Source of the DNA: a virus
DNA: 64,000 nucleotides
Reading direction: 5' to 3' (one strand)
IMG/VR virus record: IMGVR_UViG_3300047444_000617
Location: 1-64,000 of that record
The notes under the pieces are model-generated. The model was not told the DNA's origin. It saw nothing but the letters and a program-made list of their open reading frames with translations, and did not search any database. This document shows positions 5,347 to 63,402 of this stretch, piece by piece (position 1 is the stretch's first letter; each line of letters starts with the position of its first letter). The position numbers and the translations under genes are program-made.

Positions 5347-5502
5347 ATGACAGCAGCAACCGCCCCTCGGGCGCTTCATACCCAGGCCCCCGGGCCCATG
5401 ACCGAACAAGAGTGGCTGGACCACTACCTCAGCCAGGCCCCCTACCTACCCGACGAGGCCGTGGACCACGTCCTCGCCATCTACCAACTGGAGCGTGTAT
5501 AG
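5347..5502 (+). CDS. 51-aa micro-protein, paralogue of 7179-7283
   Basis: ...MTEQEWLDHYLSQAPYLPDEAVDHVLAIYQLERV; TACGAT just upstream suggests leaderless start; below ORF-track cutoff. Confidence 0.55.
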   Translation: MTAATAPRALHTQAPGPMTEQEWLDHYLSQAPYLPDEAVDHVLAIYQLERV

Positions 5503-5506
5503 GTAA

Positions 5507-5545
5507 GGAGTGGACCCGCCTCTCTGCATGGGGCGGGTCCACTCC
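5507..5545. terminator. Hairpin terminator between convergent genes
   Basis: GGAGTGGACCCGCC...GGCGGGTCCACTCC. Confidence 0.7.
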
Positions 5546-5555
5546 TGTGTTCCGA

Positions 5556-10028: not shown

Positions 10029-10238
10029 TTAGATATGAAGGCCAGCCTTCTTGAGCTGATTCTTGGTCTTGATCCAGCCGGGCGTTGCCCCGGTCAGACC
10101 GCAGACCGAAGCGACCTTGCCGTCAGGGGTCGTCCACTTGATGTGGTTGCCGCCAGTGATCTCCACCGTCCACTTCTGCTTCCGGGCGGCCTTGGCCACC
10201 TTCTCGATTTCCTTGTCCGCGCCCAGTCTCTGGGACAT
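10029..10238 (-). CDS. HicA-like small basic protein
   Basis: 69 aa, W-x-V-x-x-x-GGNHIKW, ends LKKAGL; own promoter TTGCGA-N18-TATTCT at 10285-10314. Confidence 0.65.
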   Translation of the reverse strand: MSQRLGADKEIEKVAKAARKQKWTVEITGGNHIKWTTPDGKVASVCGLTGATPGWIKTKNQLKKAGLHI

Positions 10239-15485: not shown

Positions 15486-15953
15486 TCATCGCCACGATCC
15501 TGTCATCGCGCCGTGGACGTCGGCCTCCCGGTAGGTGGCGGACTTGAGGATCTTGCCGTCCGCACGCCGGAGCACCTCCCCGTCCGGGCCGATCTTGCTC
15601 ATGTTGGAGCGGTGGACCTCGGCGAAAACCGCCTCCAGGGGGATGTCGAGGAGGTCGGCGGTGCCGTAGATGACGTACAGCAGGTCGGCCAGTTCCTTGG
15701 CCAGCGCCTCCAGGCTGCTCGACTTCCCCCCGTCCAGCGACTCATCGACGATGTTGCCGATGCCGTAGGCGAGGAGTTCGGCGACCACCTCGTTCCACTC
15801 CTCCTGGATCAGGCCCGCGCGCAGGGCGATGAGGGCGTCCCTCTCCTTGCCGGACCGTTCGACGAAGCGCTTCTCTCCCACCGCCCGGTGCCACTCGCGC
15901 AGCGCCTTCATGGGGCGGTGGGGCTGGATATGAAGCAGGGTGCGGATGGTCAC
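15486..15953 (-). CDS. MazG-like nucleotide pyrophosphohydrolase
   Basis: LIQEEWNE...KELADLLYVIYG...EVHRSNMSK...DGKILK. Confidence 0.85.
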   Translation of the reverse strand: MTIRTLLHIQPHRPMKALREWHRAVGEKRFVERSGKERDALIALRAGLIQEEWNEVVAELLAYGIGNIVDESLDGGKSSSLEALAKELADLLYVIYGTADLLDIPLEAVFAEVHRSNMSKIGPDGEVLRRADGKILKSATYREADVHGAMTGSWR

Positions 15954-16707: not shown

Positions 16708-17205
16708 TCAGTCGGCGAGGATGTCGCCGAGGTCGCCGGGGTCGACCGCCATGGGCAGGCGGCCGTCGTCGAAGAGGGTGATCCCGGCCAGGGTGTAGGC
16801 GCGGTCGACCAGTTGGGCGCACTGCAGGCGGTCCGCCCGGCTGATTCGCTTGTTGATGGTGGGGAACCACAGGCCGAAGAACCGCAGGCCCAGCGCGGCG
16901 TCGTCGACCCAGTTGTAGGGCACGCCCTTGCCGCCGTTGGCCTGGGTGAAGCCGACCGCTACGTCCCAGATCTTCTCCCGCGTGCTGAGCGGGAGGACGG
17001 TATGAAGGTTGTACTTGGCCTTCGGGTACCGCGAGACATGGCTGAAGCGGGCGCCACCGGGCTGGGCCTCGACGATGATTCCGCGCGGGCCGACGATGAA
17101 GGCGTGGTTGTAGCGGCTGAATGTCAGCAGCCGGATGGCCCAGGGGATGATCCCCTTGGTGGCGGTGACGCCGAAGGAGCCGATGGGAGGGTAGTCAGCA
17201 ACCAT
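16708..17205 (-). CDS. Permuted papain-like (YiiX/NlpC-P60) amidase
   Basis: His (YNHAFI) before Cys (LQCAQLVDRAY), GVPYNW, DPGDL. Confidence 0.75.
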   Translation of the reverse strand: MVADYPPIGSFGVTATKGIIPWAIRLLTFSRYNHAFIVGPRGIIVEAQPGGARFSHVSRYPKAKYNLHTVLPLSTREKIWDVAVGFTQANGGKGVPYNWVDDAALGLRFFGLWFPTINKRISRADRLQCAQLVDRAYTLAGITLFDDGRLPMAVDPGDLGDILAD

Positions 17206-17500
17206 CCTGGCCGTCCTTCTCCTCCGGCTCGACCGGCTCGTCGACCTTGACGGCCGGGCGGGCGCCCATGGCGTCGTACAGGCGGAAGTAGTCGCCGATC
17301 TGGCCGCCGAGGAAGCCGCTGTACCGGTTCTTGCCGTACGGGCGGCTGTTCCAGGTGGCGAACGGGTTGATCGGGCCGTAGGGGTAGCCGTCGTCGTCAC
17401 GCTCGACGACGGTGGTGACCGACTTGTCTGTCTCCTGCCAGTCCCCGTTGCTGTCCTTCTCGCTGTGAACCACGGTGGTGGTGGTCGTCTTACGCGCCAC
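17195..17500 (-). CDS. Hypothetical protein
   Basis: GGAGG RBS, overlapping neighbours. Confidence 0.55.
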   Translation of the reverse strand: MARKTTTTTVVHSEKDSNGDWQETDKSVTTVVERDDDGYPYGPINPFATWNSRPYGKNRYSGFLGGQIGDYFRLYDAMGARPAVKVDEPVEPEEKDGQDGC

Positions 17501-17690
17501 TGTCTTCCTCCAGGTTGTATTTGCCGTAGAAGTCGATGTGCAGGTTGTCGTTGTTCTCCGCGCGGTCGAGCCACCTCTTGGCGAAGACCTCCCGGGAGTA
17601 GAAGAAGGTCTTCGCGGTCCAGGTGCCGTCCTTGTTGATCAGCACCCGGACCTTCCACAGGTGGTTGTCCCTAGCGGTCTTCACCGGCAC
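17490..17690 (-). CDS. Hypothetical protein
   Basis: Packed small ORF. Confidence 0.5.
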   Translation of the reverse strand: MPVKTARDNHLWKVRVLINKDGTWTAKTFFYSREVFAKRWLDRAENNDNLHIDFYGKYNLEEDSGA

Positions 17691-17901
17691 CGCCGGGCTC
17701 GGTATGAAGGCCGCTGGGGACGTACTGCTCGATCTCCATGAACGGTGTGGCCAGAGCGGTGGCGATGCCGCCGTAGATGCTGTCCTCGCCCTCCTCGGTC
17801 AACTGGTCGTGGGTGGCGATGAACAGTGAGGTCAGGTCCCGGACGTTGACGTAGTGCTCTCCGTCGGGGCCTTGGAAGTAGCGCAGCGCTTCGGTGGTCA
17901 T
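17671..17901 (-). CDS. Hypothetical protein
   Basis: AGGAG RBS. Confidence 0.55.
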   Translation of the reverse strand: MTTEALRYFQGPDGEHYVNVRDLTSLFIATHDQLTEEGEDSIYGGIATALATPFMEIEQYVPSGLHTEPGGAGEDR

Positions 17902-17916: not shown

Positions 17917-19140
17917 TCAGAGCCAGACGCGGTACTCGGAGGTGACGCGTCCCTTGTCCGGGTTGACGAAGTGCAGACGCTGGGAAGGGTCGCCGGTGGC
18001 AGCCACGAACTCGTGGGCGTAGATGTTGTCCGACTCCGGGCTGCCGGTCATGAAGACGGAACCACCGTTGGCCAACTGCAGTTGCATGGCCTGGTGGTAG
18101 TGGCCGATGTACAGATCGCGGAATTCGGGGAGCACGCCGGAGGCCCACTGGTTGGCCTTGCGCAGGATGCCGTACGCGGGGATGTTGCCGCCGAAGGACT
18201 TGATCTCGTCGCCGTGGATGGCCATCGCCTTGTAGTTGCCGATGGTGAAGTGCTGGTACCAGTCGCCGGAGGTCTGGAACTTCGTCAGCCGGGGCTCGTC
18301 GGCCAGCCGCTCGCGCACGATGTTGTAGACCATGCGGTCGACGTTGTCGGAGGCCTTGATGCCGTCGCCCTTACGTCCGAGGCGGCCGTGGTTGCCGTAC
18401 TCGGCGACGACCTCGACCTCCTCGTACATCGCAAGGGCCCGACGGATGGTGTACAGCATCAGGTCGGCGACGTCGAACATCTGCTCGTAGAGCGTGCCGT
18501 CGAGTTCCCACACCTGGCCGGGGAAGATGGACACGCCCTCGACCATGTCACCGGTGAACAGCAGGACAGCCTTGTCGACAGGGTGGTCGGCGCGCTGGAT
18601 CTCGGTGATCGAGTGCGCCTTGTCGATGTACTTCTCCACCCGGCGCCGCATGATCTGCCGGTCGTAGGTCTCGGTCTGCTTACCGCCCTGCCAGTCCGTC
18701 AGGTGCCACAGGGCAACCTCAGAGTTCTTGGGTCGGTCGAGCAGTACCGGAGGCCCCTCGTAGGGGGTCTCGCCGACATAGCGGGCCGCATCGGTGGCCG
18801 CGCGGTAGACGGCGTCGATGTACTCGTCGCCCCGCGCCTTGGCCTTCTTGTAGGCGGTGAACAAGCGGCGGTTGTCGGCCTCCAGGGCGGCGATGCGCTC
18901 CTGGGGGTCGTCGTCCTGGCCGTCGGCCACTGCCTCACGCTCGCCCTCTTCGGGCTGGGTATGAAGCGGCTGGACCCTCTTGTCCCACCCGTTGGCGTTG
19001 CGCCAGCGGCGGACGGAGGTCTCGGTGGTGGTCACACCGAGGCGGACCAGTTCGGAGGCCGCCAGGGAGTGGGGAGCGAATCCCATCAGGATCTCGCGCA
19101 CCCAATCCTTGTTCGCGGCTACCTCGGGGAGTGTGGTCAA
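17917..19140 (-). CDS. Calcineurin-like metallophosphoesterase with N-terminal HTH/coiled coil
   Basis: TDWQ, GDMVEG, GNHG, HGD, GHYH motifs; TTG start after GAGGAA; promoter TTGCGC-N18-TAGCGT at 19200-19229. Confidence 0.8.
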   Translation of the reverse strand: MTTLPEVAANKDWVREILMGFAPHSLAASELVRLGVTTTETSVRRWRNANGWDKRVQPLHTQPEEGEREAVADGQDDDPQERIAALEADNRRLFTAYKKAKARGDEYIDAVYRAATDAARYVGETPYEGPPVLLDRPKNSEVALWHLTDWQGGKQTETYDRQIMRRRVEKYIDKAHSITEIQRADHPVDKAVLLFTGDMVEGVSIFPGQVWELDGTLYEQMFDVADLMLYTIRRALAMYEEVEVVAEYGNHGRLGRKGDGIKASDNVDRMVYNIVRERLADEPRLTKFQTSGDWYQHFTIGNYKAMAIHGDEIKSFGGNIPAYGILRKANQWASGVLPEFRDLYIGHYHQAMQLQLANGGSVFMTGSPESDNIYAHEFVAATGDPSQRLHFVNPDKGRVTSEYRVWL

Positions 19141-37940: not shown

Positions 37941-37956
37941 TAGGGGAGTGCTGGCG

Positions 37957-41374: not shown

Positions 41375-41504
41375 CCCGCGCGCGAGGGAGTTGAGGCTGT
41401 TGCATCTCCCCGCGCGCGAGGGTTCAAAAATCCGACTGTGACGGCGGATAAAATCCGCTTCCGTCCTGGAGAAGAATCCGACTTCCGATCGGCCAGAAAA
41501 TCCG
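41375..41504. repeat. Phased direct repeats
   Basis: CCCGCGCGCGAGGG at 41375 and 41409; A(A/G)AATCCG at 41427, 41450, 41473, 41497. Confidence 0.75.
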
Positions 41505-41505
41505 A

Positions 41506-46128: not shown

Positions 46129-46218
46129 CCGTTGCCTCCTGGTGTGGGGCGTCTTGCTGACATGGGAGACGTTACGGGCTCACGTCTCCCATGTCAAGCG
46201 AGTTCACAGAATCACTTG

Positions 46219-46509: not shown

Positions 46510-46608
46510 GATCTACCTCCTGGTGTGGGGTGCGTTTGCGTGGAGAGTACTACGGGCCACCTGACCGTGTTGCAGTGGTCAGGTGGCCCGCTGGGGGTGC
46601 TGGAAGGG

Positions 46609-47466
46609 TCAGGCGGCGATGCCCGTGCGCTGGCCGCCGATGGCCTTGTTGCTGCCCAGACGGGCGGAGCGGGCAGCGTCGTCACCGGCGGAGCGCGCGC
46701 TGTAACTGGTCGACGACGTCGGCTTGTAGCCCTTCCAAGAACCCCTGGCGGTGGAGTGCTCGGTGTAGTAGCCGTTGATCTCCGCCTTCTTGTCCATCAG
46801 GACCAGCTCGGCGGACACCTTGACCTCCTGGGCGGTGCCGTCGGCCGCCTCCTCGTGGATGGTGACGGTGGAGTTCTTGGCCGCCTTCAGTGCCTCCTCG
46901 CGGGCCTCGCGCAGCCGGTAGGCGATGCGCTGGGTGAAGGAGTCGTAGAAGTTGGCGCGGGCGGTGCGTCCGTCCACCGGCCGCTCCTCGTAATCCGTGT
47001 AGACGTCGCCCCAGTAGTCGCGCTTCTTCACCGCGCGGCTGACCGTCTCCTTCTTGTACTCGCCCTTCTTCAGCCACGCGGTGGCGGCCTCGGTCATCTG
47101 GAAGAGCAGGGAGGCGTACAGCACCTCGACGACCTCGATGTCGGAGGGCATGCCGAACGCGATGACGTAGGTGGAGTTCTGGGCGATGTTGATCGTCAGG
47201 TCGTTGTTGCGTGAGACGGCGTGGAAGAGGTTGACGAGCCGGGCGTTGTTGTTCTTGCGGACCTGCCCGATGGTGATCGTCTTGTGGGTAGGCTGCTCGC
47301 GCTGCTCCTTCTTCGCCGTGTGGCGCCGGGCAACGGCCAGGTCGATGCTGGTCTGCGTGGCGAGGGCCTGCGCCTTCCTCATGGCCGCGTCGGCTTCCTC
47401 GGGGGTGCCCGCGTTCTCGGCCTGGTTGAGGATCTTGGCCAGCTTGTCGAGCATGCGGTCGCTCAT
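46609..47466 (-). CDS. DUF2786 domain protein
   Basis: LDKLAKILNQAENAGTPEEADAAMRKAQAL N-terminus. Confidence 0.85.
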   Translation of the reverse strand: MSDRMLDKLAKILNQAENAGTPEEADAAMRKAQALATQTSIDLAVARRHTAKKEQREQPTHKTITIGQVRKNNNARLVNLFHAVSRNNDLTINIAQNSTYVIAFGMPSDIEVVEVLYASLLFQMTEAATAWLKKGEYKKETVSRAVKKRDYWGDVYTDYEERPVDGRTARANFYDSFTQRIAYRLREAREEALKAAKNSTVTIHEEAADGTAQEVKVSAELVLMDKKAEINGYYTEHSTARGSWKGYKPTSSTSYSARSAGDDAARSARLGSNKAIGGQRTGIAA

Positions 47467-47506
47467 TGGGTGCTCCTCCTGGTGTGGGGGCTTAGTGGTG
47501 AGTGGA

Positions 47507-48633
47507 TCAGGCTTCGACGTGCTCGTGGATGTCGAGCAGGTTCTCCGGGAGGGTCTCGGTGTACTTCACCCTCGGCGCACCCTTCCTGGCGTCGTCCCAG
47601 TTGCTGGAAGCGGTGGAGAACGACCTGCGCTCGAAGAGGGTCACCAGGCGCTCGCGGAGGACTTTGGTGCCCGCCGCGCCCTCGTTGCGACTGACGAGTT
47701 TCTGGGCCTCGTAGTAGTCCATGTGGCGGGCCAGCTCGGCGATGACGTCCACCCGGTTCATGGCCTGCACGCGAGCCCGGTAGCCCGGGGCCTTCTCGGT
47801 CTGCATGTCCTTGAGGGCGTTGCGTACTGCGCGCGTGTGGGCGTTGCCGAGCTGCTGCTGCGTGCGCTTGCCCTGCTCGGTTCGGATGACCCGCTCTTCG
47901 CCACATACGCGGATCGTGGTCTCGCGGTAGTTCCTGTCCACGGGGACCGCTCCTCCTGGTGTGGGGGCTGGCTGATGAGGACGAATCTACGGGTCACTCT
48001 TACCGATTGTCAAGCGGTATCGCCAAATTACTTTCTGGGCTGTCCACCGCTGGGGATGCTGATCACGCGCTTGCCCCGGCGGTGGTCGAACCGCATCTCC
48101 TTGGCCCGGTCGGCAGCGATCTCGTCGTAGATCTCGTTCACCGCCTTGACGGCGTCATTGATGGTGGTGAACGGCCCGCCGGTGCGCTCGGTCAGCCGAG
48201 GGGTGTGCAGGTCGAAGTACCAGCCGACGTCCTCGGCCGTGATGTCATCCTCGGTGGGGTTCTCGACGACCTGGTCGGCAGTGACGCGCCAGATGGCCCC
48301 GAGGCGCCCGAACTCATCGGTGGGGTAGATGATGCCTTCGCCGCCGACCTTGAGGGTGAGCATGGGGTGTTCTCCTGTCCAGAGGGTGGTAAGCGGTACT
48401 TGCGGTCAGCCGTGGTGCTTCAGTGCGTCCATGGCGGCCTGGGCGTCCTTGAACGCGCTGTTTCGGATGGTCTTGATGACCTCCCACACGAAGAGGTCGT
48501 CGGGGTCGACGGGGAACATATCGTCGGTGACTGCCTTATCCCGCAGGCCCGCATTGATCAGGCGCGCGACGGCGTTGCGCAGCCGGGCCTCGCGGTTCGG
48601 ATCCATGGGTGCGGTCATGGTGCGGCCTTTCAT
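47507..48633 (-). CDS. Three small hypothetical genes (47507-47941, 48028-48363, 48406-48633)
   Basis: ORFs with RBS; promoter TTGACA-N18-TAGATT at 47984-48013. Confidence 0.55.
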
Positions 48634-49148
48634 ATGTTGGCGAGGGCGCCGAACGAGACACCGTGGCGGGTGAAGGAGTCGGTCAGTAGCAGACCGATCT
48701 CCGGCCCCATGACCTCGCGCACCATGTGCAGGAAGGTGCTGGCGAACACGGCGTCGTGATGCTCTCCGCGCGGCGCGAGGTGGTGGCTCAACTCGTGCAG
48801 GATTACCAGTTCCCGCATAGCCCAGGATGACTCACCCGGCTTGTGGTCGGGGATGGCGAACACCTGGCCCAGCGACTCGTAGTGGGCGAACCGGTCGCCC
48901 TTGCGCTGGCGGACGCGGACAGGCAGGACAGTGCGCTCCGGCCAGGTACTGCGGACCCAGTTCAGGGCCAGCACGGCGTCGATGTAGCGCTGGATGCTGT
49001 CCAGGTCGCCGAACTTGCGCTCCCGGGGAACGAGGAGGCTGGATCCGTAGAAGTCGAAGGTGGGGACGTCGACACCGGCGAGGGAGTCGAGCGTGCGGCG
49101 GACCATCTTCTCGGCCTCGTAGACCTTGGACTTCTGGTTGTCGCGCAC
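48630..49148 (-). CDS. HEXXH metallohydrolase (TIGR04338/Rv0185-like)
   Basis: RDNQKSKVYEAE, ERKFG, WAMRELVILHELSHHL...HDAVF. Confidence 0.85.
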   Translation of the reverse strand: MRDNQKSKVYEAEKMVRRTLDSLAGVDVPTFDFYGSSLLVPRERKFGDLDSIQRYIDAVLALNWVRSTWPERTVLPVRVRQRKGDRFAHYESLGQVFAIPDHKPGESSWAMRELVILHELSHHLAPRGEHHDAVFASTFLHMVREVMGPEIGLLLTDSFTRHGVSFGALANI

Positions 49149-49150
49149 CG

Positions 49151-49501
49151 TCAGGACTCCTTGCCAGTGAGAGCAAAGATGACCTTGCGCTTGGCCTCGG
49201 CGTAACCGAGCTTGAAGCCCTGCTCCTTGGCCGCGTTGACCAGGTTCTCGGTGTGGGAGCGGGCGCCGCGCTCGGAGGTGCCACTACCCATGATCAGGAC
49301 GATGTTGTCGGAGATCTCGTACTCCAGTGGACGGCGAGGGTGCTCGATGACGGGGCCCTTGTCGCGGCCCGCGTTGTAGATGCCGTCCAGGGCGCGGCGC
49401 AGGTCGTCAATGTTCAGGTCCGCTCCCTGGCCGACCAGCTCGATGACGGCCGCGTACTTCTTCTCAAGGGCAAGGTAGTCGCGGACGCTGTTATCGGTCA
49501 T
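49151..49501 (-). CDS. Hypothetical protein
   Basis: Leader CCCCACACCAGGAGG. Confidence 0.6.
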   Translation of the reverse strand: MTDNSVRDYLALEKKYAAVIELVGQGADLNIDDLRRALDGIYNAGRDKGPVIEHPRRPLEYEISDNIVLIMGSGTSERGARSHTENLVNAAKEQGFKLGYAEAKRKVIFALTGKES

Positions 49502-49643
49502 GGTGTGCTCCTCCTGGTGTGGGGGCTGGTCTTGGTGACGAGAGATACGGTACTCAGGAATCGGTAGCTGTCAAGCCGTATCCCAAAGAGACAGGCCGCG
49601 AGCCGCTGACATGCGACTCACGGCCTGGGGGAGGCTGCAGGAA

Positions 49644-50033
49644 TTACTTCGTGGCGGTCGGAGTTACGTCCGTCGTGTCCTTCGGGCACGGAATGGTCAC
49701 GTGCGCGGAGTGGGTGTACTTGAGTCCGTTCACGACCGCGTAAGGCGTGTCCGTGGATGTGGGCGCCGGGGACGGACCGACCACGAAAGTCACCTTGCAC
49801 AATCCGCCGGGATTCTGCGTCGCAGGTGCCTTTACGTACTTGATGACCGTGCGCGTAGGTTCCGGCGAGACGTCCGAAGAGAAATCCGATACGGATCTGG
49901 TGGTCTCCTGTACAGAAATTCCGATATGAAGTCCGCCAGAAGTCTGGTTCGGAATGCTAGCGATTCCGACTGCGGGAATGGCGACGAGAACTGCTGCGGC
50001 TGCTGCGGCCTTCAGGCCGTGGGGTATGGGCAT
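49644..50033 (-). CDS. Secreted hypothetical protein
   Basis: N-terminal hydrophobic signal, Thr/Pro-rich. Confidence 0.5.
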   Translation of the reverse strand: MPIPHGLKAAAAAAVLVAIPAVGIASIPNQTSGGLHIGISVQETTRSVSDFSSDVSPEPTRTVIKYVKAPATQNPGGLCKVTFVVGPSPAPTSTDTPYAVVNGLKYTHSAHVTIPCPKDTTDVTPTATK

Positions 50034-50248: not shown

Positions 50249-51790
50249 TTACTCTCCCTGTTCGTTGAAGAAAGTTGGTACATCGACGACCTCAGCGTCG
50301 ATGAATCCGCTCGACTGCTCGATCATCCGGTCCGCTGACATCGGACGGTCGAGCGTTGTCATCTGCTCCCCCGCGTCCCGCCCGAAGATCCGGCTGATCA
50401 TCCCCGCCTGGGCGCCGTTCCCCTTGGCTTCCAGTTTCACGGAGAAGCCCTCCTGCTCCAGTTCGGTCTTGACCTTGACCAGTTTCTGAAGCCGGTCGAT
50501 CTCGCCGGACAGGTTCGGATCCGCGTATCCGCCGGTCATGTCCTCGACCATCTTCATGAAGAGCACCCGCTGCGCCTGCATCTCGATGAGCGAGTTCTGC
50601 AGCGACTGCATCTGCTGCTTGCTCTTCACCTGTACCGGGATGTCGTACGCGCAGTTGCTGTGCTGGTCGTACGCCGGGCACTTCGAGGACAGGAAGCAGG
50701 AGGAGCACTGCCGCATGGACTGGCTGCGCACCGTGACCAGGGGGACGTCACGTTCCTTGTTGAGCCCGTCCTCGGGGTCGGTGTAGGTCTCCTTCTCCTG
50801 CACCAGGCCGATGACCGGCAAGTTGGTACGCGGCCGGTCCTTCCTGGGCATGGGAGTTGATACGCCGTTGAGCGGTTCGGAGTCCGCCGTACCAACTTCA
50901 CCCCCCTGCAATTGAGCGAAACCGGAAAGTAGCCCGGAGGGGGAGGTAGTAACTGCTTCGGGTGAGTTCGGGCGGTGCTGCTCGATGGAGGCCGCCAACT
51001 GCTGCCACGACCAGATGGTGAAGCGCAGGACCTCGTCGTTGTCGCCGTCCTCGATCTTGTCGGCGTCGAAGCCCGCTTCTATGAATAGCGTGCGGTGCCT
51101 CTTTCGTGCCTGCTCCTTGTACTTCTTCGGGTAGCGCTTCAATTCCCGGCCGGTCCACACAATGGTGTCCCCGTATTGGCTGGGGGAAAGCCAGGAGGTC
51201 GACGCCACGCTGTCCCAGGTGACGGCTGCCATTTCCGCTGGCTTCGTCATGGCGACGCCGTGGAGCAGCGTGCCGTATTTCCTGGTGATCTCGTTGAGGA
51301 CCGGTGTGAGATTCCGTCCGTCGAGATCCGTCTGGGTAACTCCGACGCGCTTGTATCGCTGGGCGAGGCGGTCGAGTTCTTCGACTCCCCATTCCGCGTG
51401 CCATATGGGAAGGAATTTGTCTTCCGGGATGTCCTCCCAGAAGTCCTCCCGCATTGCGGCTATCCATTCGCGTCCGAGAACGACCGCGTCGAACTCGGAC
51501 ACCATATGAAGCGAGTCGATGTTCTGCTGGACGAACGCCATGTAGTGCGCGGCGATTTCCTTCAGTTCAGCGACGGAGTACTTGTCGTCCTCGGCCTTGT
51601 TCACCGTGTAGGCGCCGGAGTCCAGGAACACCTTCTGGTTGGGCAGGTAGTGGTCCTGGATCAGCCAGGGCCTGGAGAACTTGGTGCGTCGCCGCAGCCC
51701 CATGTACGACAAGGAGACGTTCTCCACGCCTTCCTCGGCCAGCATCTTCCGCCAGCCTGGAATCTCAGAGCCTCCCAGAAAGAGGTGCAC
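50249..51790 (-). CDS. TGT/DpdA-like barrel fused to Cys4 C-terminal domain
   Basis: FLDSGAYT, PIWH, LHGVAMT, DSVASTSW...YG; CSSC...CP...C. Confidence 0.6.
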   Translation of the reverse strand: MHLFLGGSEIPGWRKMLAEEGVENVSLSYMGLRRRTKFSRPWLIQDHYLPNQKVFLDSGAYTVNKAEDDKYSVAELKEIAAHYMAFVQQNIDSLHMVSEFDAVVLGREWIAAMREDFWEDIPEDKFLPIWHAEWGVEELDRLAQRYKRVGVTQTDLDGRNLTPVLNEITRKYGTLLHGVAMTKPAEMAAVTWDSVASTSWLSPSQYGDTIVWTGRELKRYPKKYKEQARKRHRTLFIEAGFDADKIEDGDNDEVLRFTIWSWQQLAASIEQHRPNSPEAVTTSPSGLLSGFAQLQGGEVGTADSEPLNGVSTPMPRKDRPRTNLPVIGLVQEKETYTDPEDGLNKERDVPLVTVRSQSMRQCSSCFLSSKCPAYDQHSNCAYDIPVQVKSKQQMQSLQNSLIEMQAQRVLFMKMVEDMTGGYADPNLSGEIDRLQKLVKVKTELEQEGFSVKLEAKGNGAQAGMISRIFGRDAGEQMTTLDRPMSADRMIEQSSGFIDAEVVDVPTFFNEQGE

Positions 51791-51853: not shown

Positions 51854-52534
51854 TTACTTCTTGAGCGGCTTGACGGCGCTCGCGGGGAACAGGCCGGGCT
51901 GGGTGACGCGCGGCTTGCGGGCGGCCGTCGACTTCGGCTTGACCGCCTTGGGGCCCTCGCTGGCGGCCAGACCGAACTGCTGTGGGGCGCGGACCTGGCT
52001 CGGGCCGAACAGACCCTTCTGCACGGCGCGCTGCGGCGCCTTGGGAGCAGCCGGTGCCGGAGCCGACGGCTTGGCGGGGGCGGAGTACGGCTTGTCGAAC
52101 TCGCGCAGGTCCTGCACCTGCGAGGGGTGCGGGGCGGCCATCGGTGCGCTGGTGTGGGTGCTCGGCCGGTTGAAGGCGTTGTGGAAGTCCTCCCACGCGC
52201 CGCCCGACGGCTTGCTCTGCGCCTGGATGGAGTCCATCCGGGCGTTGAAAGTATGAAGGAGGTCGGAGGCTGCGGCGCTGTGCTTGGCCTGCCAGGTGTC
52301 GGCGGAGCGGCTGAACGACTTGCCGACCTTCTGCACGTCGCCGCTGGGGGTCGAGGAGGGGGCCTGGGTGGGCGCCGGGGAACCCTTCGGGCCCGGTCGG
52401 CGGCTGGGGGTCCTGGCAGGGTTCTCCAGGGCGCTCAGGCGGTCCTCGACGGAGCGCTTGCCGTGGAACTGCAGCGGGTGCAGGTAGCGGTCGCGGAACT
52501 GGGTGGCTATGGAGTGGAAAGCGAAGGCGCTCAT
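51854..52534 (-). CDS. Basic Pro/Ala/Ser-rich hypothetical protein
   Basis: Low-complexity 226 aa with repeated Q(K/P)GLF. Confidence 0.55.
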   Translation of the reverse strand: MSAFAFHSIATQFRDRYLHPLQFHGKRSVEDRLSALENPARTPSRRPGPKGSPAPTQAPSSTPSGDVQKVGKSFSRSADTWQAKHSAAASDLLHTFNARMDSIQAQSKPSGGAWEDFHNAFNRPSTHTSAPMAAPHPSQVQDLREFDKPYSAPAKPSAPAPAAPKAPQRAVQKGLFGPSQVRAPQQFGLAASEGPKAVKPKSTAARKPRVTQPGLFPASAVKPLKK

Positions 52535-54391: not shown

Positions 54392-54778
54392 TTACATCTT
54401 GAGGGCGGCGCGGAGCCGGGCCTCCTCGGCCTGCCGCTGCATGGCGGCGCCCGCCATGATCATCTGCTGCTGGGTGCGCTGGGCGGTCTCCATGGCCTGG
54501 ATGTCCTTCTGCACCACGGAGGCCGCACCGTAGATGTCGTCGAAGGTGGCGCCTCGGTCCAGCACCAGGTCGAGGGCGATGGCGAGGTTGGCGTCCGCCA
54601 CGACGGCGCCGTCCTTGCCGACGACGACGAGGAACGCGGTGGTGACGCGGGTGCCCGTCTCCTCGGCGGTGGGCGGGTTGTCCTCGGCCATCTTGGCCAG
54701 GGCCTGCTTCTGCTCGTCGGTGAGGTCGGTATGAAGCGGGGTGCTGGTGGTCTGGCCGAGGATCGGGATGTCAGTCAT
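54392..54778 (-). CDS. Hypothetical protein
   Basis: GGAG RBS, terminator-like hairpin 54335-54376. Confidence 0.65.
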   Translation of the reverse strand: MTDIPILGQTTSTPLHTDLTDEQKQALAKMAEDNPPTAEETGTRVTTAFLVVVGKDGAVVADANLAIALDLVLDRGATFDDIYGAASVVQKDIQAMETAQRTQQQMIMAGAAMQRQAEEARLRAALKM

Positions 54779-55395: not shown

Positions 55396-56394
55396 TTACT
55401 TGCCGGTGGCCAGGTAGCGGCCGAGCAGGACGTAGGAGTCCCCGCCCGTCGCGCCCTGGATCGCGACCTGCTTGCCGTTGATGACGACCTGGCCCGCCTT
55501 GGCGTGCGTGTAGCCCAGGGCGGCGTTGGCCGGACCGCCGACCGCGACGACGACGTCACCGGCAGCCAGAGCCGCCTTGGCCACGTCCACACGGCCGGTC
55601 GAGACGGCACCCTTGGGCTGGAAGGCGTCGGTTGCCGCCGCTGCCGTCAGGGTGTCGACAGCCTCGCCGAAGATGACCATGGTGTACGCCTTCGTGGGAG
55701 CAGGGGTAGGTGCGGGAACGGGCTTGGGGGTCACGGGGATGACCACCGGCGGCTTGTTGATGACCGGGACCGGGACGGGCTTCGGCTTGGGAGCCGGAAT
55801 GGCCAGGGCGGCCCAGGTATGAAGGTCACCGTTGAACATGTCGTTGTCCAGGCCGCCGACGATGCCGTACTGGTGCAGCGTCCACACCTTCCACGGCCCG
55901 ATCCTGGGGTGGCCCGCCGGGTTGGCCGGGTCGGCGATCCACAGCGGGTAGGACGTCAGGACGGCCTTGTTGGCCGCCGAGCACGCGGCGTAGACGTTGG
56001 TCATCCAGTACTCGTTGACGTACAGGATGGGAGAGGCACCGGTCTTGGCCTTCACGTGCGCCAGCCACCGCAGTGCGTACTCCGCCCGCTGGGTCCACGA
56101 GCCCTGATCCCACTCCAGGTCCAGCACCAGCACATCGCCGATGACGGCCTTGGCCTTGGACAGGAAGTAGTCGGCTTCCTTGATCGGGTCGTTGGCGGGG
56201 TGCGCGAAGTGGTAGTGCCCGATCGCCTTCTTCGCCTTGCGCGCCGCAGCCACGAACGTGTCGTGGTCCGGGTCGTGGAAGGTCAGGCCCTCGGTCGCCT
56301 TGGCGACGACGAAGGCGTTGCTGCTGCTGGCCACCGCAGCGAGCACCGTCTTGGAAGCGTTGACGTTCGCGACGTCGACACCGTGGAGAGACAT
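55396..56394 (-). CDS. GH25 muramidase (endolysin)
   Basis: HGVDV, KATEG, GHYHFA, LDLE, LWIA, HQY, LDNDMF; Pro-rich linker and C-terminal domain. Confidence 0.9.
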   Translation of the reverse strand: MSLHGVDVANVNASKTVLAAVASSSNAFVVAKATEGLTFHDPDHDTFVAAARKAKKAIGHYHFAHPANDPIKEADYFLSKAKAVIGDVLVLDLEWDQGSWTQRAEYALRWLAHVKAKTGASPILYVNEYWMTNVYAACSAANKAVLTSYPLWIADPANPAGHPRIGPWKVWTLHQYGIVGGLDNDMFNGDLHTWAALAIPAPKPKPVPVPVINKPPVVIPVTPKPVPAPTPAPTKAYTMVIFGEAVDTLTAAAATDAFQPKGAVSTGRVDVAKAALAAGDVVVAVGGPANAALGYTHAKAGQVVINGKQVAIQGATGGDSYVLLGRYLATGK

Positions 56395-57110: not shown

Positions 57111-58364
57111 TCAGAACAACCTCTGCTGGCCCGGGTGGACCTCGGTATGAAGCCCGTTGCCCTTTCCGTAGGAGTTCAGGGAGGAGTCGTGGTTGTCTCC
57201 CCGTCGGCGCTTTTCCTCGCTCCACTGCGCGGACTGCATGTTGGTCAGCGAATTGAGGCCGCGCTCCGTCATCACCTTGCGGGCGACGTGGTCGTGGAAG
57301 GCGTGGATTCCCTTGATGCCCATGTAGGCCTCCTGGGACTCGCTACCCTTCTTGCTCTCCAGGTGCGGGGCGAAAGCGCCACCGCCGGAGTGCGTGTCGG
57401 ATACCCAGAACTGCGACGAGCCGTGGGGGTCGACCCACGAGTTGTGATAGGCGGAGACCTTCTCACCGGCTGTCGGCTTCCACGCGTCGGACAACTTCTC
57501 GCCGCCCAGGACCTTGTGCGTGACGTCGATGGCCAGCGCGTGGTTTCGCGGGTAGCCGTTGGCCGGGTACGCGCGGGTGTCCCCTTCCTTCTTCTCCAGT
57601 TTCGTGAACTGCTTGCCGCTGCGGGCGGTGACGGTCTTCTCGACCTTGTCCTCGCGCGGGACGTAGTAGTCGGGGTGGTAGTGGTACTCCTCGCCGGTGC
57701 GGCCCGACTTCGCCCACTGAATCGCGTGGGTGGCTGCCTCGTCGTTGGGGTAGACCGCCCTGCCCGTCTCCTTGTCCGGCCGCACGAACACGTTCTGCGG
57801 GGACGTGATGGCGTTGGCGGCGGCCTGCACACCGAACGGGACGCCGTTGTTCTTCGCCGACGTCTTCAGCCGCGCACGCGGGCTCAGGGAGCCGTTGCGG
57901 GTGTGGTCCTCGGCCGGGCTGTAGAAGGAGTCGTGGTGCCCGCCCTCGTGGTCGTACGCGCGGTCGACCTGGGCACCCAGAGCGCGGTGAGCCGACTCGG
58001 GGGTGACGCCGAACTTCGCGGCCGAGCGCAGCACGCGGGCCTGCTCGTGCGGCGCGAAGTCCTCCCACCGGCGATTGACCGGCATCATGTCGCGCGTGGG
58101 GTTCATGGTGTGCTGGCCGTGCCACACGTCCGACCCCTCCGGCCCGGCCAGTTCCATCTGGCCGTGCAGGTTGGGAGCCTTGTCGGTGTTGCCCATGAGC
58201 CGGTACGACTGCCGTGGGCTGGCGGCGGCCCCCGGCTTGTCCTGGATGGTCTGGAAGCGCTCGGGGTGCGCGCCCTCGAAGGACACGCGCTTGACGGTGG
58301 CGTCCTTGACCGTCTTGTTGTAGACGCGGGTCTCGGCCGCCTTCTCCGCTGGGGTCTTGGCCAT
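57111..58364 (-). CDS. Hypothetical protein with DUF7178/HhH-glycosylase-like motifs
   Basis: AITSPQN, KVSAYHN...P...VSDTH, MQSAQW. Confidence 0.5.
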   Translation of the reverse strand: MAKTPAEKAAETRVYNKTVKDATVKRVSFEGAHPERFQTIQDKPGAAASPRQSYRLMGNTDKAPNLHGQMELAGPEGSDVWHGQHTMNPTRDMMPVNRRWEDFAPHEQARVLRSAAKFGVTPESAHRALGAQVDRAYDHEGGHHDSFYSPAEDHTRNGSLSPRARLKTSAKNNGVPFGVQAAANAITSPQNVFVRPDKETGRAVYPNDEAATHAIQWAKSGRTGEEYHYHPDYYVPREDKVEKTVTARSGKQFTKLEKKEGDTRAYPANGYPRNHALAIDVTHKVLGGEKLSDAWKPTAGEKVSAYHNSWVDPHGSSQFWVSDTHSGGGAFAPHLESKKGSESQEAYMGIKGIHAFHDHVARKVMTERGLNSLTNMQSAQWSEEKRRRGDNHDSSLNSYGKGNGLHTEVHPGQQRLF

Positions 58365-60838: not shown

Positions 60839-61441
60839 TCAGGCCTGGGCCAGGATCTCGTGCACCTTGGTATGAAGGTCCTGGAGGTCCCCGTCGTTGA
60901 CCAGGTGGGAGTCGAACCACTTGTCGGGCAGTTCCTTCTCCGACTTGTGGTCGTTGACGGCGCCGTAGCCGGGCCGGGTGATCTTGATTAGCAAGCCCAA
61001 GCGAGAGTCGATGGCCTGGTGCTCGTTCTCGAACCGCAGGTCGGTGAAGACGTAGCGCTTGCTCTTGTCCAGGCCCTTAAATGCGGCCTCGACCCACACG
61101 TCCTGGCTGATCATCTCCCGGCCGACCTCGGTGCCCAGCACCTGCAGCATGCGGCGGATCTCGTCGTAGGTGCGCTTGGCGTCCTCCCAGCCGATCTCGT
61201 CCACGATCTCCTGCAGCCGGAAGTCCCGGCCGTAGGAGTCGGACAGGATGACGGGGTTGAGGACGTACAGGGCCTCGCGGAGGGTATCGGCGAAGGCGAC
61301 TCGCTCGTACCCGTACTCGGTCAGGATCCGGGCGACGGCGTCCTTGCCGGTTCCGGGGTATCCGTGGAGGCCGATGAAGCCGGGCAGCCACTCCAGGATG
61401 ACCTGGGGAAGCCTGTCGGTGGGGGAAAGCGTGGTGCTCAC
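60839..61441 (-). CDS. Deoxynucleoside monophosphate kinase
   Basis: GYPGTGKD, FADTLRE, RRMLQVLGTEVGR, TDLRFENE. Confidence 0.88.
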   Translation of the reverse strand: MSTTLSPTDRLPQVILEWLPGFIGLHGYPGTGKDAVARILTEYGYERVAFADTLREALYVLNPVILSDSYGRDFRLQEIVDEIGWEDAKRTYDEIRRMLQVLGTEVGREMISQDVWVEAAFKGLDKSKRYVFTDLRFENEHQAIDSRLGLLIKITRPGYGAVNDHKSEKELPDKWFDSHLVNDGDLQDLHTKVHEILAQA

Positions 61442-61994
61442 TTGGTCTGGTCCTCTACTTCGATGGTGGTTGCGAGGGTGTTGTCCCTGATGTACTCGAC
61501 CATCAAGGGGATGGTCCACAGAGCCCGCCGGGCGGCGACGACCTGCTCGTTGCGCCGCTTCTCCATGCGCTGCAGGGTTTCGAACTGGCCCTTCCAGCGG
61601 CCGGTCATCCAGTCCGTCTGGGCGATCAGCGGGGTGACCTTGTCGATGAGGTTCCGGGCCTGGTCCTCCGTACTCCACCGCCGCTTCCGCTCGGCGATGA
61701 GTTCGTCGGTGGTGCGGTCGAGTTCGGCGCGCACGGCGATCAGCGCGTGGGCGGTGTACAGGAGGAGCCCGACGAATACGGCGGCGATCACCAGCGCGGT
61801 GATGGTTCCGGCGCTCATCGGTGCATCAGGCACCGCGCGGGCACATCCTTGACGGGCTGCCAGGACCACCAGGAGCAGGGGGCGGAGGTGCGTATCCACA
61901 CGCCCCCCACGAGGAGCGCACCGAGCGCGAGGCCCACCAGCGCACACGTTACGTAGAAGGGCAGTTCTCGGCGGAGTCTGCGGAAGCGGTTCAC
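61438..61994 (-). CDS. Two membrane proteins (61438-61818, 61815-61994)
   Basis: N-terminal TM helices, overlapping start/stop. Confidence 0.55.
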
Positions 61995-62695
61995 GGGGCG
62001 ACCCTTCCCCAGCCCACGAAGGCCTGGTATGTCAGCGGGAAGTACTCGGCGAAGGCGGCTTCCATCTCCAGCGCCACCTTCTCGATCTCGTACTGCGGGA
62101 AAGAGGCGAAATGGGCGCCGGGGTTCTTGGTGCGCAGGGACAGGAAGTGCATCAGCGAGCGCGGGTTGCAGGTGGCGTAGAACGCGGTGTAGGTGCCGAC
62201 CGGCAGTACGTTGCGTGCGACCTCCTTGGCCACGCCCGCCTTCAGCATGCGTTGGTAGGAGGACCACGCGGCGCGGTAGACGCTCTCGTGCTCCCAGCGC
62301 GTGATGCCGAAGTGCTCGTGGGTGCCGGGGACGAACGTGTACTGGCCTGGCTTGCCCTCCTGCACCAGCGGGCGGTCGTGCGTCGGGACGTAGAAGTGAG
62401 GCTCCAGTTCCCGGTACCTGCCGGAGGTCTCGTTGTAAGACCACCCGGCCCTGTGCCTCATGAACTCCCGAGCCACGAAGATCGGGGCCTCGATGAGGAA
62501 CGACAGCGAGCCGTGCTCGAAGGGGCTGCCGTGCCGGTTCTCCATGAGGTAGTTGATCAGGCCCCCGGCCTCCCCCGACTCCGCCGCAGCGGAGCCGAGG
62601 GTGGACACGCGAGCCGCCTGGCAGATCTTCGCGTCGGACCCGGCCAGGTTGTCCAGGTCGAGCGTCGCGGAGAGGTCTGAGCGGAGGGTGGTCAC
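61991..62695 (-). CDS. thyX: Flavin-dependent thymidylate synthase
   Basis: AARVS, HGSPFEH, REFMRHR...SYNETSGRY, ARNVLP. Confidence 0.95.
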   Translation of the reverse strand: MTTLRSDLSATLDLDNLAGSDAKICQAARVSTLGSAAAESGEAGGLINYLMENRHGSPFEHGSLSFLIEAPIFVAREFMRHRAGWSYNETSGRYRELEPHFYVPTHDRPLVQEGKPGQYTFVPGTHEHFGITRWEHESVYRAAWSSYQRMLKAGVAKEVARNVLPVGTYTAFYATCNPRSLMHFLSLRTKNPGAHFASFPQYEIEKVALEMEAAFAEYFPLTYQAFVGWGRVAP

Positions 62696-63402
62696 TTGGA
62701 CTTCACCACCGACTTCGGCGACTCGTCGTTCTTGAGGGTGGCCTTGAAGTAGGTACCGGCCGCGTCGTGGTAGACGACGACACCCTCGGGGTCCATGAAG
62801 CCCGGCGCGATCAGGGAGCCCTCGGACTCCAACGTATGAAGCGCCTCGTCGACTGCTTCGTTCAGCCACTTGCCGTCGATGACGGAAATGACCGGCACCA
62901 CGGTGACGATATCCGGGGCGGGCTTGGCCTTGGGGAAGGTCTGCAGGTAGTGCTCGGTGATCTCCGGGTCGTTCGAGTCGTACCAGCGCTGGGTGTTGAA
63001 CAGGGCGAAGCGCTTCTCGTCGAGCCCGTAGCCGGACTGGATGCCCTGGCCGAACCACTCGCCGTAGTGCTTGCCCTCGCCGAGCCCGGCCAAAGCGACG
63101 GCGTTCTCCCACACCCACGCAGCGAACTGGAAGTTGTCGTTGCCGGGGGTGAGCCAGCGGTTCCGGCTGCCCGCCCGGACGATGAAGCGCTCGTAGCGGT
63201 TGTCGGTCTCGTTGAACAGCGTGACACCGACTCCGGTCGTACCCTCCAGGTACTGGGGGTCCATCAGGGGGACGGCGTCGGGGAGCCGGGTGACCTCGAT
63301 CAGGCCGTTGGTGCCGTTGATCTTCTCGGTGATGACCACACGGCGGTGCAGTCGCGGGATGGGCCGGAACTTCGGGTAGTCGCTCGCCTTGAGGACGGTC
63401 AT
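62692..63402 (-). CDS. RNA ligase family protein (Rnl2-like adenylation domain)
   Basis: TEKINGTN, SRNR, YGEWFG, FALF, PEGVVV, K. Confidence 0.75.
   Translation of the reverse strand: MTVLKASDYPKFRPIPRLHRRVVITEKINGTNGLIEVTRLPDAVPLMDPQYLEGTTGVGVTLFNETDNRYERFIVRAGSRNRWLTPGNDNFQFAAWVWENAVALAGLGEGKHYGEWFGQGIQSGYGLDEKRFALFNTQRWYDSNDPEITEHYLQTFPKAKPAPDIVTVVPVISVIDGKWLNEAVDEALHTLESEGSLIAPGFMDPEGVVVYHDAAGTYFKATLKNDESPKSVVKSK

Follow-up and report, generated by a model that had tools for sequence, protein, structure and literature searches.

A family of temperate Streptomyces phages carries one exact 8-letter word, with few exceptions in the same reading frame and written with rare codons, in about 40 of its own genes. 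The word differs between close relatives and tracks a small phage gene for a HicA-like protein, a putative RNA-cutting enzyme, which points to an undescribed way for a phage to control its own messages. We analysed a window of 64,000 nucleotides, positions 1 to 64,000 of the 110,248-bp virus contig IMGVR_UViG_3300047444_000617 (G000 below), together with the whole contig and related genomes.

The word, its frame and its distribution

The sequence-only reading had reported 19 copies of RTATGAAG on the + strand of the window and one on the - strand, and this observation is confirmed, as all 20 copies were found at exactly the positions given. Dinucleotide shuffles gave a mean of 0.78 and a maximum of 4 copies. 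The whole genome has 41 copies on + and 1 on -, and similar ratios were seen in eight relatives. Nearly all genes lie on the - strand (152 of 162 in our GC3/codon-based calls), so the sense word is CTTCATAY. Two details needed correction. The - strand copy at 5374 lies in a small + strand ORF (5338-5502, 54 aa), in frame 9-12 codons after its ATG, so its mRNA also reads CUUCAUAC. The one copy that does not fit gene orientation is instead that at 24323. The gap without any copy that had been noticed in the window is real, and a second gap runs from 84.6 to 93.8 kb. Copies are dispersed at about 1.5-2.7 kb, with fairly regular spacing near 1.5 kb in the replication region; no two copies are closer than 182 nt in G000 and none closer than 394 nt in the 50-85 kb region. 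All features are listed in the table.

Table. Copies of the word and associated features in the window (strand as that of the sense word or gene).
Position	Strand	Feature	Remarks
5374..5381	+	sense copy CTTCATAC in the small divergent ORF 5338-5502	Leu-His-Thr near the N-terminus; every related genome has exactly one such reverse-strand copy, about 2.2-2.7 kb before the terminase gene
10033..10040	-	sense copy CTTCATAT	last codons (Gly-Leu-His-Ile-stop) of the HicA-like gene
10029..10238	-	69-aa HicA-like protein	candidate reader of the word; largest dialect-linked divergence of the genes testable
15928..15935	-	sense copy	Leu codon 7 of gene 15486-15953 (PRA-PH/MazG-like)
17000..17007	-	sense copy	codon 67 of gene 16708-17205
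17490..17684	-	64-aa protein of unknown family	second most dialect-linked gene
17702..17709	-	sense copy	codon 65 of 76 of gene 17671-17901
18959..18966	-	sense copy	codon 59 of the exonuclease-like gene 17917-19140
24323..24330	-	copy in main orientation, antisense inside the + strand LuxR/TrmB-like regulator gene 23527-24402	the only copy not in a confirmed sense ORF
24993..25000	-	sense copy	codon 110 of the polynucleotide kinase-phosphatase gene 24458-25327
26598..26605	-	sense copy	codon 109 of the T4 Rnl1-like RNA ligase gene 25802-26929
28930..28937	-	sense copy	codon 7 of gene 28494-28955
30094..30101	-	sense copy	last codons (Leu-His-Thr-stop) of gene 30090-30347
31250..31257	-	sense copy	codon 4 of gene 30931-31266
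31258..49923	-	18.6-kb block of small - strand genes with no copy of the word	carries its own extended ribosome-binding word; corresponding gaps appear in the site lists of G001 and G003
49924..49931	-	sense copy	phase 0 of an uncalled - strand ORF with a signal-peptide-like start
51504..51511	-	sense copy (Leu-His-Met)	codon 73 of gene 50249-51727
52251..52258	-	sense copy	codon 93 of gene 51854-52534
54729..54736	-	sense copy	codon 15 of gene 54392-54778
55817..55824	-	sense copy	codon 191 of the GH25 lysozyme gene 55396-56394; G003 keeps Leu-His-Thr here but with CTC-CAC-ACC
57145..57152	-	sense copy	codon 405 of 417 of gene 57111-58364
60870..60877	-	sense copy	codon 189 of 200 of the dNMP kinase gene 60839-61441
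62834..62841	-	sense copy	codon 188 of 236 of gene 62692-63402

To separate selection on the word from codon usage, we used codon-aware nulls, a check that had been proposed beforehand. Permuting codons within genes gave 0.30 copies and shuffling synonymous codons gave 1.6, against 35 observed in called CDS. Leu-His-Thr occurs 32 times against 3.9 expected, and 30 of the 32 use the rare codons CTT-CAT. One-mismatch variants are almost absent. The word is exact in the relatives G001 and G003 at orthologous sites whose flanks are 70-89% identical, and it can be lost by synonymous change while Leu-His-Thr is kept. Beyond the 8-nt core with its pyrimidine at position 8, weak extra information of about 2 bits at -2, -1 and +8 to +12 extends the site to about 13-15 bp.

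The word is read as CTT-CAT-AYN. Over the CDS of seven related genomes we counted 210 copies in phase 0, none in phase 1 and one in phase 2, the last in G003. Rarity of codons does not explain this, as phase 2 needs only one rare codon and is the commonest phase under the codon-permutation null. In G000, none of the 15 sites in phases 1 and 2 that could become the word by synonymous changes alone carries it, while 35 of the 41 Leu-His-Thr/Ile/Met sites (phase 0) do. Of 33 copies outside called CDS, 14 lie in phase 0 of small ORFs that have a start and a stop abutting the start of the next gene, and none of the 33 does so in either other phase. These leader ORFs recur in relatives, upstream of recA and of the initiator. 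The copies outside called CDS mostly lie in small ORFs or gene extensions, and we found none that is clearly in non-coding DNA and none in a promoter. The single reverse-strand copy in each genome is in frame near the start of a reverse-strand ORF. In G000 all 35 CDS copies lie in different genes (P about 1e-4 to 1.5e-3), but one copy per gene is not a strict rule, as relatives have a few genes with two copies. In predicted mRNA folds the word is more accessible than its neighbours, with an unpaired probability of 0.56 against 0.36.

Dialects and dialect-linked genes

In a sister clade, at least 23 of the orthologous sites read CTTAATAY in G002 (A type) instead of CTTCATAY (C type), and the reverse-strand copy switched dialect together with the rest. 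The four A-type genomes form a clade nested among the C types. Sites with a naturally conserved His carry the word only in C types. The phage G015, at 69% terminase identity, uses its own in-frame polar word, CTTCTAGVC: CTTCTAG occurs 32 times against 7, with 26 copies in phase 0 and a null of 1.4. Three relatives at 60-65%, G004, G005 and BRock, have no such word. The frame lock could have been inherited from an A-type ancestor, as in the A dialect phase 1 gives TAA and phase 2 needs TTA. However, genome identities place the A clade inside the C types, so this explanation is weakened, and G015 is frame-locked with a different word. In the A and G015 dialects stop codons or TTA exclude one or both of the other phases, so part of the frame lock there is forced by coding.

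Of the genes with orthologues in both G001 and G003, the HicA-like gene is the most dialect-linked, with C alleles 69-75% and A alleles 40-42% identical. Allele and dialect agree in all 25 loci or genomes where dialect and both linked genes could be typed, although the A-type genomes are one clade and this agreement amounts to few independent events. G015 has a homologue at 41-47% identity, while a profile search did not find the gene in G004, G005 and BRock. Among isolated phages no homologue was found in 50,697 phage records, and none was found in 401 sampled Streptomyces genomes. The 64-aa gene is dialect-linked as well, but it matches no family and was not found in G015. A predicted complex of the two proteins gave no verdict. 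Primase and helicase-loader genes rank third and fourth, but fewer A-type genomes cover the replication block, which inflates its fixed-difference counts.

The assignment of the 69-aa protein to the HicA toxin family rests on weak sequence similarity and on a predicted fold. Its own match to Pfam HicA_toxin (PF07927) has E=0.052 and 14.1 bits against a cut-off of 27. Of 14 homologues, 12 match at E<=0.01, the best with 26.7 bits; one database homologue carries a precomputed PF07927 hit, and JGI names several homologues HicA-like. The AlphaFold2 model (pLDDT 81.9) has the dsRBD-like alpha1-beta1-beta2-beta3-alpha2 fold (H9-20, E24-29, E32-36, E43-47, H53-65). Structural comparison with VIA-align gave HicA 5yrz_D as the top hit (Z 5.4, rmsd 2.5 over 55 residues), and also 6g26_E (Z 5.1), 1whz_A (Z 4.3), 4p78_D (Z 4.2) and 6hpb_C (Z 3.2), values that are modest for so small a fold. 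A Gly-Gly-Asn-His stretch is present with His32 invariant in 22 homologues; in the model His32 starts the second strand, and its equivalence to the catalytic His of solved HicA would be by analogy. No HicB antitoxin was found: with PF15919, the one HicB-type model searched, there was no match anywhere in the genome at E<=0.1, whereas the same search gave hits in 6 of the 14 control genomes, and the flanking gene 9618-9962 has no HicB-like hit.

What may read the word

The interpretation given by the sequence-only reading is partly supported. Its core inference, that selection acts on the nucleotide word and not on the peptide or on codon usage, is strongly supported. Of the three mechanisms it offered, RNA binding or cleavage fits best, a stoperator-like DNA site accounts for part of the data, and a Chi-like or packaging signal fits poorly, as the word follows gene orientation and reading frame, is missing from 18.6 kb and is not enriched in Streptomyces genomes. 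It had not recognised the frame lock as absolute, the sister dialects or the linked HicA-like gene.

Our preferred, though tentative, explanation is that CUU-CAU-AY (CUU-AAU-AY or CUU-CUA-GVC in relatives) is a cis signal on the phage's own mRNAs, read in frame while the message is being translated. The most likely reader would be the orphan HicA-family protein, a putative endoribonuclease that would cut, or at least engage, ribosome-bound mRNA at the word. One copy in an ORF, or in a tiny leader ORF translationally coupled to the next gene, would then put that cistron under the control of the RNase. About 40 replication, nucleotide-metabolism, lysis and structural genes carry the word and the 18.6-kb block of small genes is exempt; the purpose would be post-transcriptional control of middle and late genes, by silencing in the lysogen or timed shut-off. 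Because word and reader must match, they would co-evolve, which would produce discrete dialects and could also give dialect-specific immunity between phages. E. coli HicA is reported to cut at codon boundaries, which the authors find hard to reconcile with ribosome independence (PMC8546651); this is the one known property that would make a target frame-dependent. The analysis itself demonstrates strong selection on the exact word, the frame lock, the restriction to ORFs, the dialect switch at orthologous sites, and the co-distribution and co-variation with the HicA-like gene, whereas the activity of the protein as an RNase, its role as the reader, the cutting and the purpose of the circuit are our inference, made from correlation and without biochemical evidence. 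Known HicA toxins have poorly defined, loose specificity (PMC8546651), and exact 8-9-nt recognition by a 69-aa protein would be unprecedented. Why a phage should make 40 of its own genes cleavable is explained only by analogy.

If the reading holds, this is a new layer of phage gene control, in which the cis code is hidden inside coding sequence, is read only in frame and can be re-tuned by evolution. It would give HicA-type proteins a defined function in a phage, would explain how a tiny RNase can be harmless to the host, as Streptomyces chromosomes carry very few such words, and would offer a compact, programmable, frame-dependent RNA tool. A more far-reaching reading, which we consider unlikely but not excluded, is an RNA-level immunity and kin-recognition code, in which a prophage-encoded RNase reads the frame on the ribosome and in-frame barcodes in the lytic genes keep lytic messages silent in the lysogen and destroy messages of superinfecting phages of the same dialect. 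A one-base change of reader plus barcodes would create a new immunity type. This would be the translational counterpart of repressor/stoperator immunity and the first HicA-family enzyme with 8-9-nt, codon-register specificity. Independently of mechanism, the data are a clean natural experiment in co-evolution: about 40 dispersed sites, at least 23 of them read at orthologous positions, switched one base in concert, and sites with a functionally needed histidine were abandoned.

Other explanations appear less likely. The word could be read on translated mRNA by another factor, such as the 64-aa protein, another small phage protein or a host factor recruited by one of them, and act as a translational pause, block or licensing signal. 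All the evidence for frame, ORF restriction, coupling and orientation applies equally to this possibility, and in the two search tables the 64-aa gene often sits on contigs of the same length as HicA-like homologues, but the absence of this gene from the search of G015 speaks against it, and no known class of protein reads 8 nt in frame apart from ribosome-associated nucleases. A stoperator-like system, in which a repressor binds the asymmetric word in double-stranded DNA, blocks RNA polymerase travelling in one direction and silences lytic genes in the lysogen, is somewhat less likely still. It would explain the single orientation relative to transcription, including the reversed gene, the dispersed spacing, the extended site and the dialects among close temperate relatives as immunity specificities; Cluster A stoperators have exactly these properties, and similar systems are said to exist in Streptomyces phages (PMC6550527; PMC9283540). 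However, a DNA roadblock has no reason to be frame-locked or to sit only in ORFs and coupled leader ORFs, and a repressor's operator should be in a promoter or non-coding region. The divergent HTH genes (14208-15071, XRE/DUF5753, and 23527-24402, LuxR/TrmB) are not dialect-linked or lack orthologues, in comparisons that did not include an L5 gp71-like model. We consider doubtful a polar signal for replication or recombination on the lagging-strand template, such as a primase start site (the 3' pyrimidine would template a purine first nucleotide) or a phage-specific Chi-like site. The polarity, the regular spacing in the replication region, the rank of the primase and helicase-loader genes and the one syntenic reverse copy per genome agree with it, but frame lock and ORF restriction remain unexplained, stretches of 18.6 kb and 9 kb have no copy, and the reverse copy is in frame in a reverse gene. 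Four Streptomyces genomes (the true host strain being unknown) hold 10-45 copies per strand in 7-12 Mb, about one per 150-300 kb, against 8-24 for the backwards-read control, no more than about twice that control, so the word is not a host Chi.

Nucleation sites for Lsr2-type silencers, of the host or the phage's own Lsr2-like protein (21931-22296), are very unlikely. The word is one of the most AT-rich patches in 65% GC DNA, but Lsr2 binding is not strand-, frame- or sequence-exact and a one-base dialect switch at 23 or more orthologous sites would be pointless. A by-product of codon usage, of a favoured tripeptide or of mutation bias, for which only the shared strand of the genes speaks, is refuted by the codon-aware nulls, by the change of the peptide to Leu-Asn-Thr in the sister clade while the nucleotides otherwise stay the same, and by the unrelated residues at the same positions in motif-less relatives. 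Those residues are varied and mostly polar or charged, which also rules out recoding or editing to a fixed residue. We looked for a guide RNA as a sense- or antisense-strand 8-mer complementary to the word (G-U pairs allowed) that changes with the dialect, and none was found. There is no covariation between the flanks that would suggest a hairpin or an anticodon-loop mimic. The same phage tRNAs (Pro-TGG, Phe-GAA, Leu-CAA, Asn-GTT) occur in both dialects with no dialect-specific change, and a search for known RNA families found only four tRNAs and a c-di-AMP riboswitch.

Relation to known systems

Literature searches for the words themselves returned only unrelated hits. The uptake sequence dialects of Neisseriaceae, Chi, KOPS, AIMS (PMC5993296) and HIP1 of cyanobacteria, for which selection is documented (PMC5861425), are likewise hyper-abundant short words written into coding DNA at a cost in rare codons or amino acids. 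Those are genome-wide DNA signals of the cell, enriched in the host chromosome and not locked to one reading frame or to gene orientation, whereas here the word is confined to the phage. The T4 RegB endoribonuclease is a phage-encoded sequence-specific RNase whose GGAG targets are embedded in one class of the phage's own mRNAs, its own message included, and which serves temporal control. RegB, however, reads 4 nt in Shine-Dalgarno regions, is unrelated to HicA and is not frame-dependent, and no dialects are known.

The HicA toxins of HicAB toxin-antitoxin systems share with the 69-aa protein the size, the predicted alpha-beta3-alpha fold, a weak HMM match and, by analogy only, a conserved His. 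The protein described here differs in being phage-borne and without a detected HicB partner, the proposed specificity of 8-9 nt is far higher than that of any described HicA, and the proposed targets are the element's own genes. The stoperators of Cluster A mycobacteriophages (L5/Bxb1-type repressor sites) are also asymmetric words dispersed in some tens of copies over a temperate actinophage genome, in one orientation relative to transcription, and their sequence differs between related phages and co-evolves with a phage-encoded reader (PMC6550527; PMC9283540). Stoperators are 13-14-bp DNA sites bound by an HTH repressor and include an operator at the early promoter, whereas here the core is 8 nt, the copies, apart from the exceptions given above, lie inside translated ORFs in one reading frame with none in a promoter, and the linked gene encodes a putative RNase-family protein rather than a repressor.

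Abundance, reading frame and placement of the word

The window is the first 64 kb of a virus record of 110,248 bp that IMG/VR classes as having direct terminal repeats, and its GC content is about 65 %. Its relatives by terminase are Streptomyces phages and prophages. A gene call based on GC3/codon log-odds placed 152 of 162 genes on the - strand, and therefore the word RTATGAAG, which the sequence-only reading had listed on the + strand, is CTTCATAY on the coding strand. The observation held, as all 20 listed positions are exact, while dinucleotide shuffles give 0.78 copies. The whole genome (G000) contains 41 copies on one strand and 1 on the other, and CTTCATA is its most over-represented 7-mer. 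To see whether the word is more than a consequence of coding, we permuted codons within genes, which gives 0.30 copies, and shuffled synonymous codons, which gives 1.6, against 35 observed in the called CDS. Leu-His-Thr occurs 32 times against 3.9 expected and 30 of the 32 are CTT-CAT-ACN, although CAT is otherwise rare (80 against 632 CAC). One-mismatch variants are almost absent, so the word is all-or-none. The sequence-only reading had proposed selection on the nucleotide motif itself, as a stoperator-like repressor site, an RNA-binding or cleavage site, or a Chi-like or packaging signal, and this interpretation was partly supported, with strong support for its core inference of selection on the nucleotide word.

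All 35 CDS copies in G000 are in phase 0, while the null expects phase 2 (xxC-TTC-ATA-Yxx) to be the commonest. In the same genome, nine phase-1 and six phase-2 sites could become the word through synonymous changes alone and none carries it, whereas 35 of the 41 Leu-His-Thr/Ile/Met sites (phase 0) do. Over seven related genomes the CDS copies split 210 : 0 : 1 for phases 0 : 1 : 2, and the single exception is a Phe-Ile-Arg site at a gene end in G003, a relative by terminase. Of 33 copies outside called genes, 14 lie in phase 0 of small ORFs that have a start codon and a stop abutting or overlapping the start of the next gene, and in each of the other two phases the count is 0 of 33. Examples are leaders of 10-28 codons before recA, the replication initiator and a tail gene, and they recur in relatives. 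In the orthologues of the A type, in which the word reads CTTAATAY, the word itself puts TAA in the frame of the downstream gene, which therefore cannot extend over it.

Each of the nine genomes or large fragments examined has exactly one reverse-strand copy. In the seven whose context we read, it sits about 2.2-2.7 kb before the terminase gene, in frame, a few codons after the start of a small reverse-strand ORF, and these ORFs belong to two unrelated families. In G000 this ORF lies between a tyrosine integrase and a large serine recombinase. The only misfit is one main-orientation copy in G000, at 24323, which lies antisense inside a real reverse-strand regulator gene.

Copies favour gene termini, with 9 within the first 15 codons and 8 within the last 15. 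At the same positions, motif-less relatives have Leu followed by varied, mostly polar residues such as Leu-Arg-Thr, Leu-Lys-Thr and Leu-Glu-Glu, and the word was therefore written in behind an existing Leu at tolerant sites. Where a lineage lost it, Leu-His-Thr can persist with common codons (CTC-CAC-ACC in G003, CTG-CAC-ACG in the relative G001). The peptide is not what is selected. The flanks add only about 2 bits, at -2, -1 and +8 to +12, and there is no enclosing stem. In G000 all 35 CDS copies are in different genes (P about 1e-4 to 1.5e-3), but relatives have a few genes with two. No two copies in G000 lie closer than 182 nt, and the smallest gap within the 50-85 kb region is 394 nt. Two stretches have no copy. 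Several genes of the first one, which consists of small genes with their own extended ribosome-binding word, are shared with G001 and the relative G002 at 60-82 % identity, and youth alone therefore does not explain the absence.

Relatives and dialects

IMG/VR holds 72 loci with a related terminase. Of these, G001 (91 % terminase identity) has CTTCATAY at 46:1 and G003 (88 %) at 33:1, and we refer to genomes with this word as C types. G002 (89 %) has none, but de novo k-mer ranking finds CTTAATA there at 40:1, and four further records are pure CTTAATAY apart from at most one stray CTTCATAY. Mapping the sites of G000 through their flanks (70-89 % identical) gives at least 28 exact matches in G001 and 24 in G003. 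In G002 at least 23 orthologous sites read CTTAATAY, which makes His into Asn in that many different proteins. In four genes where His is naturally conserved, also in motif-less phages, the word exists only in C types, and G002 has TTG-CAC-ACC and the like at those sites. Genome-wide identities place the four A-type genomes as one clade (81-87 %), which lies closer to G001 than G001 is to G000, with G003 outermost. C is therefore ancestral here and A is derived.

The proviruses G004 and G005 (61-65 % terminase identity) and Streptomyces phage BRock (60 %) have no comparable word. Four Streptomyces genomes carry about one copy per 150-300 kb, no more than about twice the backwards-read control.

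Coordinates of features in the phage genome and in two relatives
Location	Strand	Feature
4155-5231	-	Tyrosine integrase, side by side with the serine recombinase
5556-7049	-	Large serine recombinase, not shared with G001 or G002
10029-10238		69-aa HicA-like protein; identity to G000 69-75 % in C types against 40-42 % in A types
14208-15261	+	Divergent XRE-HTH/DUF5753 gene followed by a DUF397 gene, the WhiJ/BldB-like pair typical of Streptomyces, on the minority strand of the phage
17490-17684		64-aa protein; identity to G000 74-89 % in C types against 52-56 % in A types
20246-20405 and 21299-21451		tRNAs of a four-tRNA array (Pro-TGG, Phe-GAA, Leu-CAA, Asn-GTT)
20467-21129	-	Secreted cell-wall-hydrolase-like gene inside the tRNA array
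21130-21269	-	c-di-AMP (ydaO-type) riboswitch (62.7 bits) directly upstream of the hydrolase-like gene, inside the tRNA array
21931-22296	-	Lsr2-like protein (DNA-binding domain E 1.5e-9), mildly dialect-linked (57-63 % against 49-50 %)
24458-25327	-	Polynucleotide kinase-phosphatase (HAD_PNKP, E 4e-47), one copy of the word
25802-26929	-	Rnl1-type RNA ligase (E 1e-16), one copy of the word
31.3-49.9 kb		First stretch without a copy
about 38400-49600	-	Extended ribosome-binding word CCCCACACCAGGAGG, 9-10 times on the coding strand and only in the block that lacks the octamer
84.6-93.8 kb		Second stretch without a copy
G015:C1:63926-66568	-	Terminase large-subunit match split into two pieces about 1 kb apart within one open frame of 905 aa
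G001, coding-orientation 5259-5344		86-nt tRNA-His(GTG) predicted by ARAGORN, with an unusually long extra arm, found only in this C-type genome

Search for a reader of the word

Searches for an RNA that could read the word recovered no complementary guide, no dialect-specific tRNA change and no known RNA family. The tRNA set of the array is kept in all motif-bearing relatives except G003, which lacks tRNA-Phe, and is absent from G004 and G005. We then ranked genes by how much better the C-type orthologues (including the outlying G003) match G000 than the A-type ones do. Two small genes stand out, encoding proteins of 69 aa and 64 aa, while the next genes, the helicase loader, primase and dNMP kinase, show gaps of only 8-11 points. 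Allele type and dialect agree in all 25 loci or genomes where dialect and both linked genes could be typed. However, these are not independent, because the A types form one clade.

The 69-aa protein is HicA-like. Its own Pfam hit is weak, but 12 of 14 homologues hit HicA_toxin and JGI names several homologues HicA-like. Streptomyces sp. BK022 and NPDC002088 encode homologues. The predicted model has an alpha-beta3-alpha fold at pLDDT 82, and solved HicA toxins are among the best structural matches, although with modest Z of 5.4-3.2; the best Foldseek hit is 1whz. Gly-Gly-Asn-His is invariant, and no HicB was found in a search of the genome with one of the HicB-type models (PF15919). A profile of the homologues pulled out one further phage, G015 (100 kb, 60 % GC, terminase 69 % identical), whose split terminase match suggests an intein or another in-frame insertion. 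G015 has its own polar word, CTTCTAG followed by V-C. CTTCTAG occurs 32 times forward and 7 times reverse, and none of the seven reverse copies has the full 9-mer. Of the copies, 26 are in phase 0 as CTT-CTA-GVC (Leu-Leu-Ala/Asp/Gly), where codon permutation expects 1.4. By profile search, the HicA-like gene is absent from G004, G005 and BRock and from five fragments of the 58-65 % GC relatives. The 64-aa protein was not found in G015.

Possible reading of the word on translated mRNA

Among known mechanisms, we can think only of decoding as one that distinguishes reading frames. The word must also be nucleotide-exact, with CTT never CTC, NAT never NAC and position 8 a pyrimidine whichever amino acid results, which argues for a nucleic-acid reader working in register with the ribosome. 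E. coli HicA is reported to cut at codon boundaries, which the authors call hard to reconcile with ribosome independence (PMC8546651). A HicA-family RNase of high specificity would explain the frame lock, the restriction to ORFs, the sense orientation, the near one-per-cistron pattern, the exempt gene block and the co-evolution of dialects. It would also explain the coupled leader ORFs, which would control genes whose proteins cannot carry the tripeptide, the copy at the stop of its own gene (feedback), and harmlessness to a host that carries few such words. If the word is an RNase site, the T4-like RNA repair pair of kinase-phosphatase and ligase, a healing-and-sealing system in the same phage, deserves attention.

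The enrichment, frame, orientation and dialects of the word are read directly from the sequences, whereas everything about the reader is correlation, and both RNase action at the word and its purpose are inferred. Exact recognition of 8-9 nt by such a small protein is unprecedented. The 64-aa protein is an equally linked candidate within the C and A clades, and in the A and G015 dialects coding constraints alone exclude one or two phases. The alternative of a DNA-level stoperator explains orientation, spacing and dialects, and it fails only on frame, ORF restriction and the lack of promoter copies. We regard the HicA reading as tentative, somewhat less likely than not, while the broader claim that the word is read on translated mRNA seems rather more likely than not.

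The biological purpose is inferred by analogy with T4 RegB and with stoperator immunity (PMC6550527), and it could be silencing in the lysogen, timed shut-off, or dialect-specific immunity.
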